Assembly: GCA_016215405.1 (NCBI GenBank)
Contig: JACRJQ010000002.1
Location: forward strand, 1-57,596
Direction of reading: 5' to 3'
Source of the DNA: Candidatus Tayloriibacteriota bacterium
Lineage (GTDB): Bacteria > Patescibacteriota > Minisyncoccia > Phycocordibacterales > UBA6065
Length of the DNA stretch: 57,596 bases
Both the position numbers and the translations under genes were made by a program. This document shows, piece by piece, positions 2 to 43,048 of the stretch; position 1 is the first letter of the stretch; each line of letters starts with the position of its first letter. The notes below the pieces were generated by a model. That model did not search any database. It saw nothing but the letters and a program-made list of their open reading frames with translations, and was not told where the DNA came from.

Positions 2-3000
2 GAGTTAGGCAACATGTCCTTCGAATCCGACGCAGGAGTGCTCGCCTGGACCGATCTTCCTGTGACCTCCGCTTCTGCCCAGGGCGTAAAGCAGAGCTAT
101 ACGGCCCAGCTCAACGGCAACTCCATGCTCACCGTATACGGCGAGTCAGACGGCGTAGGGGGAGTGCAGAACCTCGGCGTGGGCATCGGCTCTACGACTC
201 CGTGGGGATATCTGTCGGTGAATCCGAATAATATCGGGTCTGGACGCCCGCTGTTCGCTGTGGGCTCGTCTACGGCGACGCAGCTTGTAGTGTCGACTGC
301 AGGTAACGTTGGTATCGGAACCACTGATCCACGAAACATCGGCCTTCTCATAGACAAACCTCAGAACTCGTTCGTCACGACGGACAGCAGCGCGAACGCG
401 TGGAACTACAAGGCGCAGCTTTTTATAAAGTCTGGTACGAGCGGCGGGAACGGCCTCGGGCTCTTCGTCGACAACACCGCTAACGCCCGTACCGCATACA
501 TCCAGGCGGGCCACGCAGACTATGCGCTCGCCTCGGCCGTCTCGGATTCCGAGCTCGCGCTCCAGCCGTTCGGAGGAAACGTCGGCGTGGGAACGTCGAG
601 CCCTGCTCAAAAGCTCACTGTGGCGGGCGGAGGCTCGAACTTCATAGCTCTCGACCCTGCGGGAGGAAACGACGCGACCATCAGGCTCAACAGGGGCAAC
701 TCGAGCAACTATTATGGAACGCAATTCAGCCAGACGAACGCATGGACGACGACATGGCAGCTCGGTTACTTCGGGGGCTCGCCTAACGCCGCAGACCTGA
801 CCGTCTACGATTCAGGAACTCCTCGAGTAACCTTCGCTACGGGCGGCAACGTGGGTATCGGCACGACTACTCCGCAGGTGCCTCTGAGCGTCGCAGGCGA
901 GATACGCACGTCAGGAACTTCGCCTCTTCTGAGCTTCTATGACATGACGGTCGGCGGCACTTCGAGGAATTGGGCGATATACGGTAGCGACATCGCGGAA
1001 GGAGACCTCAATTTTAAGGTAAGCACTGCGGCCGGTGGAAACCCAACTTCCGGAACTTCTGTTATGTACTTTAACGGATCTGGCAACGTCGGCATCGGCA
1101 CGACGTCTCCATCCGCGAAGCTCGCGATCGCAGGCCAGACCTACTCCAATACCCTCAAGCAGGAGGGCGGATTCACGAGCCATCGAGGACAGGCAGTGGG
1201 TCTCCAGCTCCTCGGTCTTCAGGGCGGCTGGAATTCAGGTATCGGATTCGGCTCTACCAACGCGAACCCTGCCGGTGGATTCGTATTCGACAACGCGACG
1301 GGCGATCTCACATACTACTCGACGACCTCGACGAGCAACTTCCTCTCAGGCGACGCCGATCTCGTTATAAAGGCGTCGGGCAACGTAGGAATCGGGACCA
1401 CGAACCCTGGCAACAAGCTCACCGTCCTCGATTCTGCGACGAACAGCGGATTCTATGTCGCGCCGGCGTGCGACTCTACGAGCAAAGTCTGTCTCGGAAA
1501 CGGGACAGGGAACCGCGTAATCGTCCTCGACAAGACAGGAGGCAACGAGGTCATCCAGCTCTGGACGAATAACAACGAAAGGATGCGCATCGGATCTGAG
1601 GGTAATGTCGGCATCGGTACGTCGTCTGCGTATCCGTATCTTCTTTCCGTCGGCGGCACGTCGTCTGCGAACGGCGGTCTCATATTCACGAATTCCGGCA
1701 CCGAGAATACTCCGTCTGGTATCGTCGTAGACCAGGGCTCGAACGCTCGTGTCGGTCTTATAAAGATAGGAGGGCTCGAAGGAATGCTCACTCATACCGC
1801 GGCTGTGCCGTTCAGGATCGGTAGGACATCGGCGACGAGCGTCGCTTCGACTACGAGCGGCAACTTCACCACCGAGCTCCTTATCAGCACGACGGGTAAC
1901 GTCGGAATCGGCACGACGTCGCCGACGGCGAAATTCGAGGTGAACGGGAACACGTATGTGAACGGAAGCGTCGGTATCGGGACAGCGGCCCCTATCTCGG
2001 CTTTGCACATCGCGACGAACGCTCCTATCGTCCGTCTCGAAGACACGGTGACGACGATAAAGAGCAACATACAGTCGTCAGGAGGAATCCTCTCTCTTAA
2101 CGCGGATACCGGAAACGGCGCCGCGGGATCGAGAGCTATAACTCTTAACCTCTTCGGCACGGAATACGCCCGACTCAATAACTCTGGAAACTTCGGCATC
2201 GGAACTTCGTCGCCGTACGCGCGCCTCTCTGTCGCCGGTCCTGTGGTCGCCGACAGCTTTAACGCGACAAATACCGCCGCGACGTCCACCTTTGCCGGAG
2301 GATTGAGCGTAGGTAATGGGGCGCTCTCGTACGACTGGTCGTCGGGGGTCACGAGCATAGACAATCTCGAGCTCGGCTCCTTCATGTTCGATACGAACGC
2401 GGGAATGGTCTCGTGGGCAGATATGCCGGTGACCGCGACTGCCGCCGCGGGCGTTGTGCAGAGCTATACCGCTCAGCTCGACGGAAACCCGCTCCTCACC
2501 GTCTACGCGGAATCTGACGGGGCAGGGGGTATAAGGAATCCGCGCGTAGGGGTCGGATCGACCACGCCTTGGGCGCAGCTCTCCGTGAATCCGAACAATG
2601 CAGGCGGCCCTGCGTTCGCGATCGGGTCGTCGACAAAGACCGATTTCGTCGTGACGAACGGCGGTAGCGTGGGCGTGGGAACCACCTCACCTTACGCGAG
2701 GCTCTCTGTCGTGTCGAACGCGGCCAATACGGCTTCGGCGGCGGCGGCCGTGGTGGATACCTCGGTGCTGTGGGATAACGATGGCGCGCGCCTCCTCTCT
2801 CTCCGGTCGAACGGCGTCGAGAGGCTCGGCGTCGCAAGGAGCGGGACGGTGAGGATCGGCAGGAGCTCTGGCTCGTGGAGCACGGACGACGACGTCGAGT
2901 CCCTCATATCGGTCCGCGACACCTCTCAGGGCGATGCCGCTGTGAACGGCTTCGCATTCCTCACTTCAGCCGCTTCGAACTGGACGGGCTCGAACTACGG

Positions 3001-38554: not shown

Positions 38555-39664
38555 TCACATCGCCCTGCCTATCCTAGCCTTCCTGGATATGTTAAGGAGC
38601 ATGCCTGAGACCGCGAGGACGAAGAAAAGCGCGGTGCCGCCCTGCGATACGAACAGAAGAGGTATGCCCGAGAGGGGCAGCACTCCGAGCATGGCGCTTA
38701 TGTTCACGAACGATTGCGCGATGACGAAGGTCGTTATGCCCACGGCGAGAAGCCCGCTATACGCGTTCTCGGCAGCTCCTGCTATCCGCAGCGACCGCAT
38801 GGCGAAGAAGACATAGAGCGCGATAAGGGCAACGCTCCCAAAGAATCCGAATTCCTCGGCCGCGACCGCGAATATCGAATCGCCCACCGGCTCGGGGAGG
38901 TAGTTGAATTTCTGTATGGACTGGCCGAAGCCGCGGCCCGCAAGCCCGCCCGATCCTACCGCTATGAGCGACTGCTGTATCTGGTAGCCCGCGCCCTGGC
39001 TCGATGCGGAAGGGTCGAGGAAAGTCTGTATGCGCGACATCACGTAAGGCCGTGTGAACGCGAGAGCCGCGAGGCACAAGGCGCCTACGACCGCCAGGAT
39101 GGCAACGTGCTTCCACTTCCCTCCTGCAGAGACGTACATGGCGAGGAGAGACGCTCCGATTATAGCGAGCGTGTCAGTATCCGGCTGCGCGAGGAGGAGG
39201 ACCGAGACGATGACGAGCATCGCGACGAGAGGGAGAAACCCCATCTTCCATTCCGAGGCGCGCTCTCTTGCGTACGCGAGCCATGAGGCGAAATAGATGA
39301 CCGAGGCGATCTTGAGAACCTCAGAGACCTGCAGAGAGAACGAGCCGATAAGGAGCCATCGCGTCGCCCCTCCGTGAGAGAGCCCTAAACCGGGTATGAA
39401 CACCAGGACGTTAAGGACGATAGCTCCGATGAATATCCAAAAGGAGAACTTGCGCCAAAGGGCCACGTCGAGGCGCGAAAAGGCGTAAAGCGCGATGAGG
39501 CCGGGGATGAGTCCGAGATATATCTGCTTCCAGACAATAGAGCTCATATAGCCCGAGTCCCTTTCAAGGAGCCCTAAGGACGCCGAGAGGAATATCAGGA
39601 AACCGGCCCCGACGAGGAGGAGTATCGATATGAGGAGCTGTATATCCATTCGATTCTGCTTCAT
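38555..39664 (-). CDS. ftsW: SEDS glycosyltransferase, likely FtsW
   Basis: GATRW, SEVLK, QPD, YLPE..DSIF, PLLFVSQGG; close to murG. Confidence 0.85.
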   Translation of the reverse strand: MKQNRMDIQLLISILLLVGAGFLIFLSASLGLLERDSGYMSSIVWKQIYLGLIPGLIALYAFSRLDVALWRKFSFWIFIGAIVLNVLVFIPGLGLSHGGATRWLLIGSFSLQVSEVLKIASVIYFASWLAYARERASEWKMGFLPLVAMLVIVSVLLLAQPDTDTLAIIGASLLAMYVSAGGKWKHVAILAVVGALCLAALAFTRPYVMSRIQTFLDPSASSQGAGYQIQQSLIAVGSGGLAGRGFGQSIQKFNYLPEPVGDSIFAVAAEEFGFFGSVALIALYVFFAMRSLRIAGAAENAYSGLLAVGITTFVIAQSFVNISAMLGVLPLSGIPLLFVSQGGTALFFVLAVSGMLLNISRKARIGRAM

Positions 39665-39687
39665 GGCCTACATGATATCACGCAAAC

Positions 39688-40004
39688 AAAAAGGCCCCGG
39701 AGAATGTAATCTCGACGGGGCCCTATAGTTTGGTGGCTGACGCGAAGACCTTCCTTCGTTTCTTTGGCGTCAATCGGCGCTGTCCTGCATCGGAAGGATG
39801 CGGGAGGGCCTTACGGTCGCGGACTGAGTGCGACCGAACCAAGGGTGACTAAGAGCTTGTAACGTGCGCTCGGCCGGGGCTCTTCGGACGCTTGTCCGAG
39901 AGGCAGCGAGCTGCGACGACTCTTGAACCTGTCATGGTAATCCGCTCTGGTCGATCGAAGGGCAAACGACGGCCCTGTGCCAGCAAGCGGAACTTCAATG
40001 ACCT
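39688..40004 (-). ncRNA. Candidate ~315-nt structured non-coding RNA (unassigned)
   Basis: TTGACA-16-TATAAT promoter, at least five hairpins, U-tailed terminator, no convincing ORF. Confidence 0.55.
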
Positions 40005-40010
40005 ACCCTT

Positions 40011-40038
40011 ATTATAGCAGCTATATTTAAATTGTCAA
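40011..40038 (-). promoter_or_regulatory. sigma70 promoter of the ncRNA candidate
   Basis: TTGACA (40038-40033) and TATAAT (40016-40011) on the minus strand. Confidence 0.75.
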
Positions 40039-40143
40039 CCTCTCCCGCGCTCAGAACTATCCCTTCCGTACAACGGCTAAACGAGGCCTTTTTCAGTAAA
40101 TGTTATGATTGCCTCATGGAAAAGAAATTTAAAAAGCTTCTCG

Positions 40144-40974
40144 TTAGAGCTGTTTTGGCGGATCAATTCGTCCGAGCAAAGCGCGTAACTGGTCGGGCTG
40201 AGGTACATTCTTCCGATTATAGCGGTACACGAACTCGTCGACATAAGACTGGAGGTGCTTCTTCGAAACGGAGTGGTGGGTCCCGTGCAAAGAACGCTTA
40301 AGCTGACCCCAAAAGTTCTCGATTGTATTGGTGTACACATCACCGAGCACATATTGCTTCTGTGAGTGGTTAATCGTCTGCTTCTTGTACCCCCTGACGA
40401 CGTTATATATCGCCGCGTCGTCAGTCACGAGAATTGAACCTTTTCTTATGTACTTCTGGAGAAACGGAATGATCTCGTACTCGTCTCTCCGGCTGATCAC
40501 CTTTCCTCTGAGCTGACCTCCGCGTTGCACCACTCCGACTATGGGAGCTTTGTCCTTGAAATACGAACCCGACCTCCTCGGCCGGCGGCCTCCGATATAG
40601 GCCTCGTCTGCCTCGACTACTCCAGAGAGTTTGATGTCACCTTCCTTCATGAGCCCCCTGATTGCCTTAGCCATCCTCCAAGCAGTCTTGTAGGTGACTC
40701 CGAGCTGTCTCTCTAGCTCTTTTGCAGCAACGCCGTTCTTAGATTGGGAGAAGAGATAGATGGCGTAGAACCACTTCATTAGAGAAGTGCTCGATCTCTC
40801 GAATATCGTGCCTTTGAGCGGGTAAATGTGTCGCCTATCTTGAGTAGTATAGGCTTTCCGTCCTTTTATCCTTCTGAGCTCCTGATTTGGAAACCGTATC
40901 CTTACTATGTATTCCAGACATGAATCCTCGTTAGGGAATTCCTTCTGGAAATCCTCGAAGGAATACTTTTTCAA
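40144..40974 (-). CDS. IS1595-family DDE transposase
   Basis: VEADEAYIG, LVTDD, TNTIENFW, YVDEFVYRYN; HTH ELERQLGVTYKTAW. Confidence 0.93.
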   Translation of the reverse strand: MKKYSFEDFQKEFPNEDSCLEYIVRIRFPNQELRRIKGRKAYTTQDRRHIYPLKGTIFERSSTSLMKWFYAIYLFSQSKNGVAAKELERQLGVTYKTAWRMAKAIRGLMKEGDIKLSGVVEADEAYIGGRRPRRSGSYFKDKAPIVGVVQRGGQLRGKVISRRDEYEIIPFLQKYIRKGSILVTDDAAIYNVVRGYKKQTINHSQKQYVLGDVYTNTIENFWGQLKRSLHGTHHSVSKKHLQSYVDEFVYRYNRKNVPQPDQLRALLGRIDPPKQL

Positions 40975-41083
40975 GTATATCTAGACTAGCCCATACCCCC
41001 TCAGTGTCAAGCTATAATGGGAGTGGCATCCCTTGAGTAAGGATGCCCTGGAATCCTACTTCCTAAATGCCATATCCACTAAA

Positions 41084-41149
41084 ATGGATATTTTAAACCT
41101 CATCATCGTTCTCTTGATTCTCAGAGAGGTAAGACTCTTGGCGAAATAA
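41084..41149 (+). CDS. 21-aa hydrophobic peptide, type I toxin-like candidate
   Basis: MDILNLIIVLLILREVRLLAK between TATAAT (41013-41018) and a hairpin at 41161-41187. Confidence 0.45.
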   Translation: MDILNLIIVLLILREVRLLAK

Positions 41150-41236
41150 AGCCGATGATCGCAAGACCGCCCACAAGGCGGTTTTGCTATGGTTCGAGGG
41201 TTTTGGTTGATACCTTATTACCGTCCGTAGTTATAG

Positions 41237-41992
41237 TCACGGTACCAACCTATTTATCGCTCGAATGGTTTCGTTGGAAGATTTGAGCCATTTCCTTACG
41301 TCCTCGATGACTATTTGCCTCTGCTGCCCTTGCTTTTTCTTGCCCCACAGCACGATGTCCGCCTCATGAACTATTCTATGCCTGCGACTAAACAGGGCCT
41401 TTAGTTGCACCGTTGCTTGAATCTTGCGACCGGCCTTCGTTCTAAGATTATCTTTTTTACTCTTTAGTTTTCTTTGAGTGGCAATTTTAGGCCATATTTC
41501 CGATGGTTTTTTGCCCATCATCGCAAGCGCAGTATCTATGCTTGAAATACTTTGAAAGGACAATTTATTAAACGCAGCTTGAACGTAATCAACAATTTCC
41601 GACTCGTTTGAACTACAAGCCAAATCAACAAGTCTCTTTTCTTCTTTTTTTAGCTGCTTGTAACCTTTGCCGTTGTAACCAGAACTTGCGGCCGCCTCTT
41701 TTGCTAGATTCCTAACACTCTCTGGTATCACGAAACCCCTTCCCTTGATTTGACCCCTCAAGACGTTGATTACCTTTACTTTAAAATACGCATCGATCGC
41801 AGCGACTTCGAATATCACAGCAGCTCTAAGATCATCAAACTTTTTCTTCTTTGGGCTCCGCTCATTAAGAAAGATGTCTGCTCTTTTGTGGGCCGCGTTG
41901 AATATGTCTAAAGGGGTAGAAGCCATGGATATATTAGTCATACTATGAGCTAGTTTGACTATTTTTTCAATGTCCAGTCTAAAATGCCCCAT
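41237..41992 (-). CDS. HEPN-domain protein (RiboL-PSP-like), IS passenger
   Basis: LRAAVIFEVAAIDAYF helix and RRHRIVHEAD (Rx4H); true start may be the ATG at 41926. Confidence 0.7.
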   Translation of the reverse strand: MGHFRLDIEKIVKLAHSMTNISMASTPLDIFNAAHKRADIFLNERSPKKKKFDDLRAAVIFEVAAIDAYFKVKVINVLRGQIKGRGFVIPESVRNLAKEAAASSGYNGKGYKQLKKEEKRLVDLACSSNESEIVDYVQAAFNKLSFQSISSIDTALAMMGKKPSEIWPKIATQRKLKSKKDNLRTKAGRKIQATVQLKALFSRRHRIVHEADIVLWGKKKQGQQRQIVIEDVRKWLKSSNETIRAINRLVP

Positions 41993-42079
41993 TTCAATTT
42001 AAGGGTACAGAAACAGACTTATTCACAGGCTCAATTAAGCGGTTTTTGTACCGAGGGGATAGTTGCCCCCGCGCTTCCC

Positions 42080-43048
42080 TTATAGGGAGGCATCCAAAGG
42101 AGGCGTGGACGTGGCCGGCGTCGAGAAGAATTCGACCGTAGCGTCGACGAGCTTGTCGAGGTCTTCGAACCTTCCCTCGTACGAGGATCCGAGCACGGCT
42201 ATGATTATCGGTCGGCCGATGCCTGCGTTCCAAGCGACGACGACGTTTCCGCCAGATAGATCAGTGTATCCGGTCTTCGACGCGATGACGTTCGGTATGG
42301 TCGATATCGAGCGGTTGGTGTTCGTCGCGTCATGAGTCGCGTTGTTCGAAGAGATGTTGGTCCTGCCGTACGAAGTCGCCTCGAGGAGGTGCGGATCGGT
42401 CTTGAGGATATATTCGACGAGCTTCGCCATGTCCTTCGCGGAGCCGTAGCCGCCGGAGAGCGTCTTCGACACGTCGAGGCCTGACTGATTGAGGAAGTAG
42501 GTCTCTGTGAGGCCTATCCGCTTCGAGATCTCGTTCATCTTGCGGACGAAAGCCTCCTGGGCGCTGCCGTCCTCGGTCGTGGATGCCCTTCCCGCCTGCG
42601 ATCCGGCGACCGATGCGAGGGCTCTCATGCCGTCGTTCGAAGAGACTACGAGGCTGTAGTCGATGAGCTTGCCGAGCTTCCATTCCTCGTCGACGAGAAG
42701 GCCCGTATCGCCCTCTTCCCTTAGGTCCTCGGAAGTGATCCTTACGAGCATGTATTCCGGAATGAGCTCTTTCGCGGCCAGGGCGGACATGAGCTTCGTA
42801 AGCGACGCCAAAGGCCACTGGAGCTCTGCTTCTTTTTCGAAGAGCGCCTTGCCGGTCGAGACGTCATAGACGTAGGCGGACTTGGCCTCTATCTCCACTT
42901 GAGGGAATCTCCTCTCGGCGGACTCGGACGGCACGGAAGCGCTCTCCGTGCTAGGCGCCGTAGGCTTGACCAGCCACAAAAAGAGCGCGAGGAGTAGCGC
43001 CAAAAGACCGAGCTCTAGCCATGCCGTCGCTTTAGGATTGAGGGACAT
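42080..43048 (-). CDS. D-alanyl-D-alanine carboxypeptidase (S11)
   Basis: ASLTK (SxxK), SSN, KTG motifs. Confidence 0.92.
   Translation of the reverse strand: MSLNPKATAWLELGLLALLLALFLWLVKPTAPSTESASVPSESAERRFPQVEIEAKSAYVYDVSTGKALFEKEAELQWPLASLTKLMSALAAKELIPEYMLVRITSEDLREEGDTGLLVDEEWKLGKLIDYSLVVSSNDGMRALASVAGSQAGRASTTEDGSAQEAFVRKMNEISKRIGLTETYFLNQSGLDVSKTLSGGYGSAKDMAKLVEYILKTDPHLLEATSYGRTNISSNNATHDATNTNRSISTIPNVIASKTGYTDLSGGNVVVAWNAGIGRPIIIAVLGSSYEGRFEDLDKLVDATVEFFSTPATSTPPLDASL

Follow-up and report, generated by a model that had tools for sequence, protein, structure and literature searches.

Elements of the IS1595 family of insertion sequences (IS) move by DDE transposition, make 8-bp duplications of their target and can carry passenger genes, as recorded in ISfinder. 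The family has subgroups with names such as ISNwi1+ and ISPna2+. Solved HEPN RNases, a second class of proteins that concerns us here, are dimers with a composite, metal-independent site built from two Rx4H motifs. Transporter IS (tIS), as a class within this family, go back to Siguier, Gagnevin and Chandler (2009, Res Microbiol 160:232), as cited in PMC3129680, and a 2013 survey of HEPN proteins lists Ribo L-PSP-HEPN among the Abi-related families, with a conserved Rx4-6H motif and a distant relationship to AbiD/AbiF (Anantharaman et al., 2013, PMC3710099). Here we describe an element in which these two themes meet. It lies in a 57,596-nucleotide stretch of DNA (the window; contig JACRJQ010000002.1) from a groundwater bacterium assigned to Candidatus Tayloriibacteriota, and is likely, in our judgment, to be a mobile IS1595 transporter unit with a HEPN-type passenger that was captured once and serves in defence or penalises loss of the element. 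Its parts are these:

40052..42067, minus strand: the whole IS1595-family transporter IS, delimited by terminal inverted repeats (TIRs) and a perfect 8-bp duplication and present as a single copy in the genome.
40044..40051, no strand: left target-site duplication CCCGCGCT, read directly, abutting 40052.
40052..40076, plus strand: left inverted repeat, core 40055-40073, with the terminal trinucleotide CAG, from a repeat finder and direct reading.
40144..40974, minus strand: IS1595-family DDE transposase of 276 aa with a TTG start (PF12762, NF033547; D123, D185, E219).
40975..41236, no strand: 262-nt spacer between passenger and transposase, which folds better than shuffled sequence on either strand.
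41237..41992, minus strand: the passenger, a predicted solo HEPN-type protein, longest open reading frame (ORF) 251 aa, with a sub-threshold PF18735 match, an RRx4H motif and an AlphaFold 2 (AF2) model.
42043..42067, minus strand: right inverted repeat, core 42046-42064, with the terminus GGCAACTATCCC common to related elements, from a repeat finder and direct reading.
42068..42075, no strand: right target-site duplication CCCGCGCT, read directly, abutting 42067 and ending 4 nt before the carboxypeptidase stop codon.

Positions 40052-42067 make up one IS1595-family element of 2,016 bp that is apparently intact. We scanned all start/end pairs around the transposase (~2.2 million) and found that 40052/42067 is the only one in which the TIRs agree at 13 or more of 20 positions and the duplication at 7 or more of 8; the chance expectation for pairs reaching 15/20 in the TIRs and 8/8 in the duplication is 1.3e-4, calculated with uniform base composition. 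The inverted-repeat arms found by the repeat finder (40055-40073 and 42046-42064) are 19 nt long and 89% complementary, and direct comparison of the outermost 25 positions gives agreement at 17 of them. These TIRs, with the perfect 8-bp target-site duplication, are those of an IS1595 element. Both the transposase (40144-40974, minus strand) and the 251-codon ORF (41237-41992, minus strand) fall within the element ends and are its only two long ORFs, those of the spacer having 25-43 codons; a single transposase and a passenger unrelated to transposition thus share one pair of ends, as in a transporter IS. Because no third copy of the TIR pattern (at most 3 mismatches) occurs between the two genes, they belong to one unit. 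The guanine-plus-cytosine (GC) content is 0.452 for the element, 0.492 for the transposase and 0.422 for the passenger, with 0.569 and 0.574 in the two 2-kb flanks. The element moved into this site as one unit, duplicating 8 bp of its target.

An earlier note on this DNA had described an IS1595 element whose 22-bp imperfect TIRs and perfect 8-bp flanking duplication enclose a transposase and an AT-rich gene encoding RRHRIVH, and our analysis bears out this description. The 22-bp figure is roughly right for arms of 19 nt at 89% with three differing tip bases outside them (CAG on the left, GGC on the right), the duplication reads CCCGCGCT at both 40044-40051 and 42068-42075, both ORFs lie inside 40052-42067, the passenger is AT-rich relative to the flanks, and the motif occupies residues 203-209 of the 251-codon ORF. 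The family assignment agrees with the profile searches: the transposase matches PF12762 at 6.1e-39 (133.9 bits; cut-off 27) and NCBIfam NF033547 at 1.3e-59 (201.7 bits; cut-off 75). When it was aligned with 25 homologues chosen from 120 listed transposase relatives, D123 and D185 were invariant and E219 was kept in at least 90%. The enzyme is apparently intact. Against PADLOC-DB 2.0, the transposase matched 0 families at E ≤ 1.

The N-terminus of the transposase holds one Cys, no CxxC and no match to the zinc ribbon PF12760, a domain that is common in the IS1595 family and that we treated as non-defining. The Cys-bearing insertion is missing from 16 of the 25 aligned homologues, including the 11 closest (51-60% identity), and the 9 that have it are those with PF12760 or visible CxxC pairs. 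Judged from this alignment, the absence of the four zinc-ribbon cysteines is a loss shared by the clade and not decay of the window copy; the earlier note was right that the cysteines are lacking. Four elements with perfect duplications, the window's and those of three other genomes (L074, L084 and L087), have ribbon-less transposases, and so does L053, whose duplication is 7/8. Because they sit in elements with such fresh-looking duplications, the data suggest that the zinc ribbon may be dispensable for transposition in this clade.

We then placed the insertion in its genomic setting. The host genome comprises 836,153 bp in 8 contigs and is rated 100% complete. Its small size, together with the source names of relatives of its genes (Patescibacteria, Kaiserbacteria, Parcubacteria, Saccharibacteria), makes Patescibacteria/CPR the most likely placement. 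A DNA search of this genome returned the element itself and one chance-level match of 31 nt (E 4e-4), and the TIR pattern (at most 3 mismatches) matched the element's two ends only; the element is single-copy. It is inserted in the spacer between a D-Ala-D-Ala carboxypeptidase gene (PF00768, 2.5e-29) and ftsW (ftsW/rodA; PF01098, 8.8e-88), 4 nt downstream of the carboxypeptidase stop codon and ~390 nt upstream of ftsW. The carboxypeptidase gene is present in 22/22 genomes of the genus, and ftsW adjoins it in 20 of the 22 same-genus loci fetched (19 genomes). Neither transposase nor passenger had a match at the orthologous locus in any of these 22 loci, so that a passenger gene residing there without the TIRs, which the earlier note had named as grounds for rejecting its reading, was not seen. 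The element is absent from the ftsW/carboxypeptidase locus in 21 same-genus genomes, and a search of 40 other related genomes found the passenger in none.

The spacer between ftsW and the carboxypeptidase gene falls into two length classes in relatives, 313-1,040 nt in ten same-genus loci and 7-64 nt in the rest. The spacers of the ten long-spacer loci cannot be aligned with that of the window (blastn gave only short matches at E ≥ 0.019), so that species-level genomes supply no exact empty site. Among public sequencing runs, the stretch appears in one only (X1, probably the source sample), and no RNA run is listed. In the Logan contigs of X1-X3, one contig of 17,083 nt spans the element and no joint skips it, a result that is uninformative on polymorphism since contigs lose rare variants. 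The search that the earlier note had proposed, for copies of the TIRs with other cargo and for the empty site, thus yielded related elements with different cargo (described below) and no empty site. Its further claim that the insertion is recent was not borne out to the same degree: the perfect duplication, the lower GC content and the absence from other species speak for it, and neither an empty site nor a polymorphism was found.

The flank on the ftsW side has features of its own. A perfect sigma-70-type promoter (TTGACA, 16 nt, TATAAT, with TG; 12/12) lies at 40011-40038 on the minus strand, 14 bp beyond the left IS end and directed at ftsW. The ~340 nt from this promoter to the ftsW start (39665-40004, minus strand) fold much better than shuffled sequence (z -4.07), with a GC hairpin and a U-run at their end. 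This segment may act as an extended leader of ftsW, or it may be a novel small RNA; it has no Rfam match, nor do the unalignable matching spacers of the same-genus loci, and a search of 39000-43000 against Rfam gave nothing at E ≤ 1.

The passenger gene was examined next. Although its longest ORF has 251 codons, the start is probably M23 at 41926, which gives a product of 229 aa; this choice follows from the relatives and the stored gene call, both of which start at residue 23, from the poor modelling of residues 1-20 (predicted local distance difference test, pLDDT, 53-55) and from a weak promoter-like site just upstream of M23. When 1.84 billion representatives were searched exhaustively with HMMER, 20 proteins, the passenger included, reached E ≤ 0.001, and a word-based protein search found only the passenger itself. 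The family is very small and has no characterised member; none of its relatives was found in the viral contigs, plasmids and phages searched. In a 16-row alignment, W167, R203, R204, I207, H209 and D212 are kept in at least 90%, which gives the family signature RRxxIxHxxD around RRHRIVH. The Rx4-6H motif expected of HEPN proteins is present as R204-x4-H209 (also R203-x5-H209), kept in at least 90% of these 16 family members.

A scan against Pfam linked the passenger to PF18735 (RiboL-PSP-HEPN) at E 2e-4 over profile positions 30-188 of 191. The same profile is found at E ≤ 0.1 in 14 of the 16 family members, and 6 of 12 relatives scanned singly score above its cut-off (32.1-53.8 bits). Because the passenger's own score stays under the curated cut-off, we do not claim membership of PF18735 for it; by its profile matches, the protein appears as a distant relative at the edge of that family and not as a member.

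An AF2 model built on the 16-row alignment is all-helical, with a mean pLDDT of 87.4 and a predicted template modelling score of 0.82. In an exhaustive VIA search, the top rows were 1ufb_A (Z 10.0, root-mean-square deviation (rmsd) 2.7, 121 residues aligned) and 2hsb_A (Z 9.8, rmsd 3.2, 121 aligned), followed by 5yep_B (Z 8.9), 8xdj_A (8.8), 1wol_A (8.7) and 3o10_A (8.6), with 7ae2_A (7.8) also among the matches. HEPN stands in 6 of the 11 top entry titles, and Csm6, AbiA, LsoA, AbiV and Las1 appear farther down. A profile search of PDB sequences gave one weak row, 2ifa_A, at E 0.1. Taken alone, the fold evidence is consistent with HEPN rather than conclusive; the model, the motif and the Pfam link together make a HEPN fold well supported as a prediction, in agreement with the fold and motif proposed in the earlier note. 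Because the structural alignment covers only ~121 of the 251 passenger residues, the protein would consist, roughly, of a four-helix HEPN core with ~100 extra helical residues inserted, placed at 85-190.

We also predicted the passenger as a homodimer, which gave an ipSAE of 0.77 against 0.01 for the best control. Of proteins solved as same-chain pairs, 20 of 30 reached the mark used for this score; of those solved as single chains, 1 of 23 did so. At least 86% of contacts are common to the runs, and the partner pLDDT is at least 80. The predicted interface includes residues 207-213, the motif segment, and a conserved helix at 53-72.

If the passenger were a regular accessory of IS1595 elements, its relatives might be expected in similar settings. 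We fetched 13 loci encoding relatives, six from species genomes and seven from metagenomes; at least two pairs (L033/L050 and L035/L051) are each apparently the same sequence. The locus search used 8 closer rows of the alignment. None of the 13 loci has an IS1595 transposase, and none has the family's terminal motif or a pair of TIRs with duplication around the gene. Because of this absence, the passenger looks like a gene captured once by the present element and not like a standing accessory of the IS. At one of the loci (L051, 93-1025, plus strand), a 310-aa ORF has an N-terminus that resembles, by eye, an IS30-type transposase, and the passenger relative lies directly downstream.

The neighbours of the relatives vary. 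At L032 they are a DNA methylase and its accompanying MutH-like nuclease, together with RhuM, YgjP and a PIF1-WYL helicase. L033 has a PIN protein and two MazF toxins, L036 has HsdM next to a serine recombinase, and L037 has a ParA-type ATPase, a ClpP-like protease and E2/E1-JAB genes. A ParA-type neighbour occurs solely beside the more distant relatives (L037 and L052). By annotation, this is the kind of company typical of defence and toxin genes. No nucleotidyltransferase family was found among 29 neighbour ORFs picked from six of the loci, the other seven being unscanned. Because no neighbour is conserved, the protein seems to work alone.

We next asked what related elements carry. Transposase relatives were sought in 801 sampled genomes and 40 close relatives; counting the window's genome each time, they occur at E ≤ 0.001 in 5 of 41 close genomes and at E ≤ 1e-40 in 7 of 401 genomes of the class and 21 of 401 of the phylum, and are rare in this lineage. 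We examined 29 IS1595 loci, in sets of ten (two of them extended) and 19, counting L044, which was found twice, once, and leaving out L029, in which a contig end cuts the transposase. The ends could be resolved in 23 of the 29, comprising seven perfect cases among the first ten loci (the window included), L053, and 15 of the second set with family-like termini; 22 of these elements have perfect 8-bp duplications and L053 has one of 7/8. The ends of L030, L041/L054, L075, L079, L080 and L090 could not be resolved. A 5,058-bp candidate at L075 (TIR 14/20, with ends unlike those of the family) was rejected as a probable product of chance. The terminus GGC(A/G)ACTAT(C/A)CC is common to many elements and to the window's right end.

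All 23 resolved elements carry extra DNA, because they measure 1,686-3,886 bp and the transposase gene accounts for ~0.8-0.96 kb. Complete type II restriction-modification pairs within perfect 8-bp duplications are found at L031 (802-3774), L042 (27-2963) and L044 (1377-3775), twice as a D12 methylase with a PD-(D/E)XK nuclease and once as an EcoRI-like nuclease with an N6 methylase. Pfam identifies an NYN RNase-type domain in L028 and, in L053, whose transposase is the closest genomic relative of the window's, a Panacea-domain antitoxin-like gene with a neighbouring gene of 130 aa. L076, L084 and L087 each carry a P63C-domain protein (325-361 aa), and two of these three elements have a ribbon-less transposase. 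The remaining recognisable cargo consists of KilA-N with a Rok-like winged helix (L086), DUF3800 with a proteasome-like protein (L088), Bro-N (L091) and a weak LPD3 match (L074); in 10 of the 23 elements Pfam recognises no cargo. Six of the 23, the window's counted, carry conflict-type genes, so that such cargo is common and not the rule. A relative of the HEPN passenger is in none of the related elements.

These elements yielded three further observations. Two contain tRNA genes, L053 at 1297-1382 and L043 at 2741-2826 (both plus strand; Rfam tRNA 54.1 and 38.5 bits, cut-off 29), which ARAGORN calls as 87-nt tRNA-Thr with anticodons CGT and TGT. The two are only loosely alike, and their length implies a long variable arm, which would be unusual for Thr. 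L088 and L089, from the same genus, have near-identical termini, duplications TTGTGTAT and CTGTGTAT, and lengths of 3,518 and 2,361 bp, which suggests a preferred target or a single old insertion with turnover of cargo. Finally, at L045 (1-984, minus strand) a 23S rRNA gene begins ~450 nt away from the 1,686-bp IS1595 element.

The reading that we favour is the one given at the outset, a mobile IS1595 transporter unit whose HEPN-type passenger was captured once. The passenger would be a solo HEPN-fold protein at the edge of RiboL-PSP-HEPN with a conserved RRx4H, as the model predicts. It would act as a homodimer whose two Rx4H motifs meet at the interface to form a composite, metal-independent RNase site, and its activity would be restrained by its own helical insert rather than by a partner. 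The protein might then repay the element or the host through defence of the abortive-infection type, or by imposing a cost on cells that lose the element. We give a defensive role about an even chance; an addiction function with a hidden antidote is unlikely, and so is the lack of any such role. A bolder proposal would make Patescibacterial IS1595 elements, including a still-active ribbon-less clade, essentially never empty and a main shuttle for small conflict genes (restriction-modification, NYN and HEPN RNases, Panacea-type modules), with the HEPN cargo a self-contained, partner-less abortive-infection RNase whose ~100-residue insert is a sensor that silences it until infection. This we regard as improbable.

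Several results weigh against the favoured reading. The passenger scores 21.8 bits against PF18735, under the curated cut-off of 28.4, and has no match in PADLOC-DB 2.0 (0 families at E ≤ 1) or NCBIfam. Its best VIA score, Z 10.0, does not reach the value (~13) below which the tool advises caution with helical bundles, Foldseek found no match to the model in the PDB at E ≤ 0.001, and the passing dimer prediction may reflect likeness to HEPN dimers that are already solved. The element has no antitoxin-like partner, no neighbour is conserved at the 13 loci of passenger relatives, and the cargo of related elements is mixed and extends beyond defence. At the left tip, CAG stands in place of the GGC seen at the right end and in related elements, and this mismatch may mean that the present copy is no longer mobile. 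The earlier note had called the element a mobile defence or addiction cassette; with no PADLOC match and no partner gene, that part of its claim stays at the level of what the protein family and the neighbourhoods of its relatives suggest.

Four other explanations were weighed against this one. The passenger could be the toxin of an addiction module that stabilises the IS and does not defend the host, its antidote, a small peptide or an RNA, being specified by the 262-nt spacer or lying antisense to the gene. The best structural matches include HEPN toxins from toxin-antitoxin pairs (5yep_B, 8xdj_A and 7ae2_A), the spacer (40975-41236) folds better than shuffled sequence on either strand (z -3.26 and -2.75) and contains an ORF of 38 codons with a hairpin and T-run after it, and L053, the closest transposase relative, carries its Panacea antitoxin-like gene beside the 130-aa one. 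Yet the element has no MNT or other antitoxin family, the 13 relatives' loci show no conserved neighbour, and the spacer has no Rfam match and nothing conserved with which to compare it. Because both an antitoxin-like partner and a conserved neighbour are missing, a classic toxin-antitoxin reading lacks its second part, and we consider an addiction module unlikely. The spacer ORF itself (41033-41149, plus strand) has a TTG start and a hydrophobic stretch, and the GC hairpin and TTTTG follow on the same strand; it could encode a small membrane peptide or be a chance ORF. Equally, the passenger might be a neutral hitch-hiker or an RNA-processing or RNA-binding protein outside defence, in which case its location in an IS would be selectively meaningless. 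The family is indeed tiny (20 clusters at E ≤ 0.001 in 1.84 billion) and without a characterised member, PADLOC gives no match, and the cargo of related elements is heterogeneous, with 10 of 23 lacking any that Pfam recognises. Such a protein would hardly account for motif residues R, R, H and D that are nearly invariant across the family, or for relatives' neighbourhoods rich in restriction, toxin and mobile genes, and this explanation too seems doubtful to us.

The remaining two concern the element itself. It could be a fossil that was inserted as a unit and is now immobile through its degenerate left tip, which would be compatible with the explanation that we favour. The left CAG differs from the GGC of the right end and of related elements, and the element is single-copy; its TIRs agree at 15/20 positions, the range being 14-20/20 among the 21 further elements with perfect duplications. 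The duplication is nevertheless perfect and both ORFs are open. Moreover, because three adjacent substitutions after insertion would be odd beside 8-bp repeats that are unchanged, the ends may be naturally asymmetric. We hold immobility to be a tentative possibility, somewhat on the doubtful side. That the passenger is instead a resident gene beside a plain IS, with the 8-bp repeat a coincidence, would draw on the GC difference between passenger (0.422) and transposase (0.492) and on nothing else. The chance expectation of 1.3e-4, the lack of a third TIR copy between the genes and the absence of the passenger from 22/22 orthologous loci of the genus effectively refute it and leave it exceedingly improbable.

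The architecture of a passenger-carrying IS1595 element has already been described and is hence not new. The HEPN cargo gives a mobile context to a very small, uncharacterised family and is a clear candidate for an assay of toxicity or defence. A ribbon-less clade in fresh-looking elements bears, as suggested above, on what transposition requires in this branch, and cargo in every resolvable IS1595 element (23/23) suggests a role in gene flow among genomes that have few other mobile elements. Our literature search found no paper combining IS1595 with Patescibacteria.

Among known kinds of element, the IS1595-family transporter IS comes closest, and its testable defining features are all present here: a single DDE transposase of the IS1595 type, a pair of short TIRs, a target duplication of 8 bp and an enclosed, unrelated passenger. 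The window's element differs from that kind in having a solo HEPN protein as cargo, a transposase without the zinc-ribbon cysteines and a very small, probably Patescibacterial, host genome. Like RiboL-PSP-HEPN (PF18735), the passenger matches nearly the full profile and conserves Rx4-6H; unlike it, the passenger lies below the Pfam cut-off and lacks both an L-PSP fusion and a neighbouring ParB gene. It has Rx4H in common with the HEPN toxins of HEPN-MNT pairs (5yep, 7ae2 and 8xdj), and the four-helix core and dimer predicted for it would be shared as well, but no MNT partner occurs in the element or beside the scanned relatives, and its core would hold ~100 extra residues. Also close are the related elements from other Patescibacterial genomes (L028, L031, L042, L044, L053 and others). 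Like the window's element, they have the terminal motif, duplications of 8 bp, a single transposase and cargo amounting to 0.8-3 kb; they differ from it in what that cargo is, none of theirs being HEPN.

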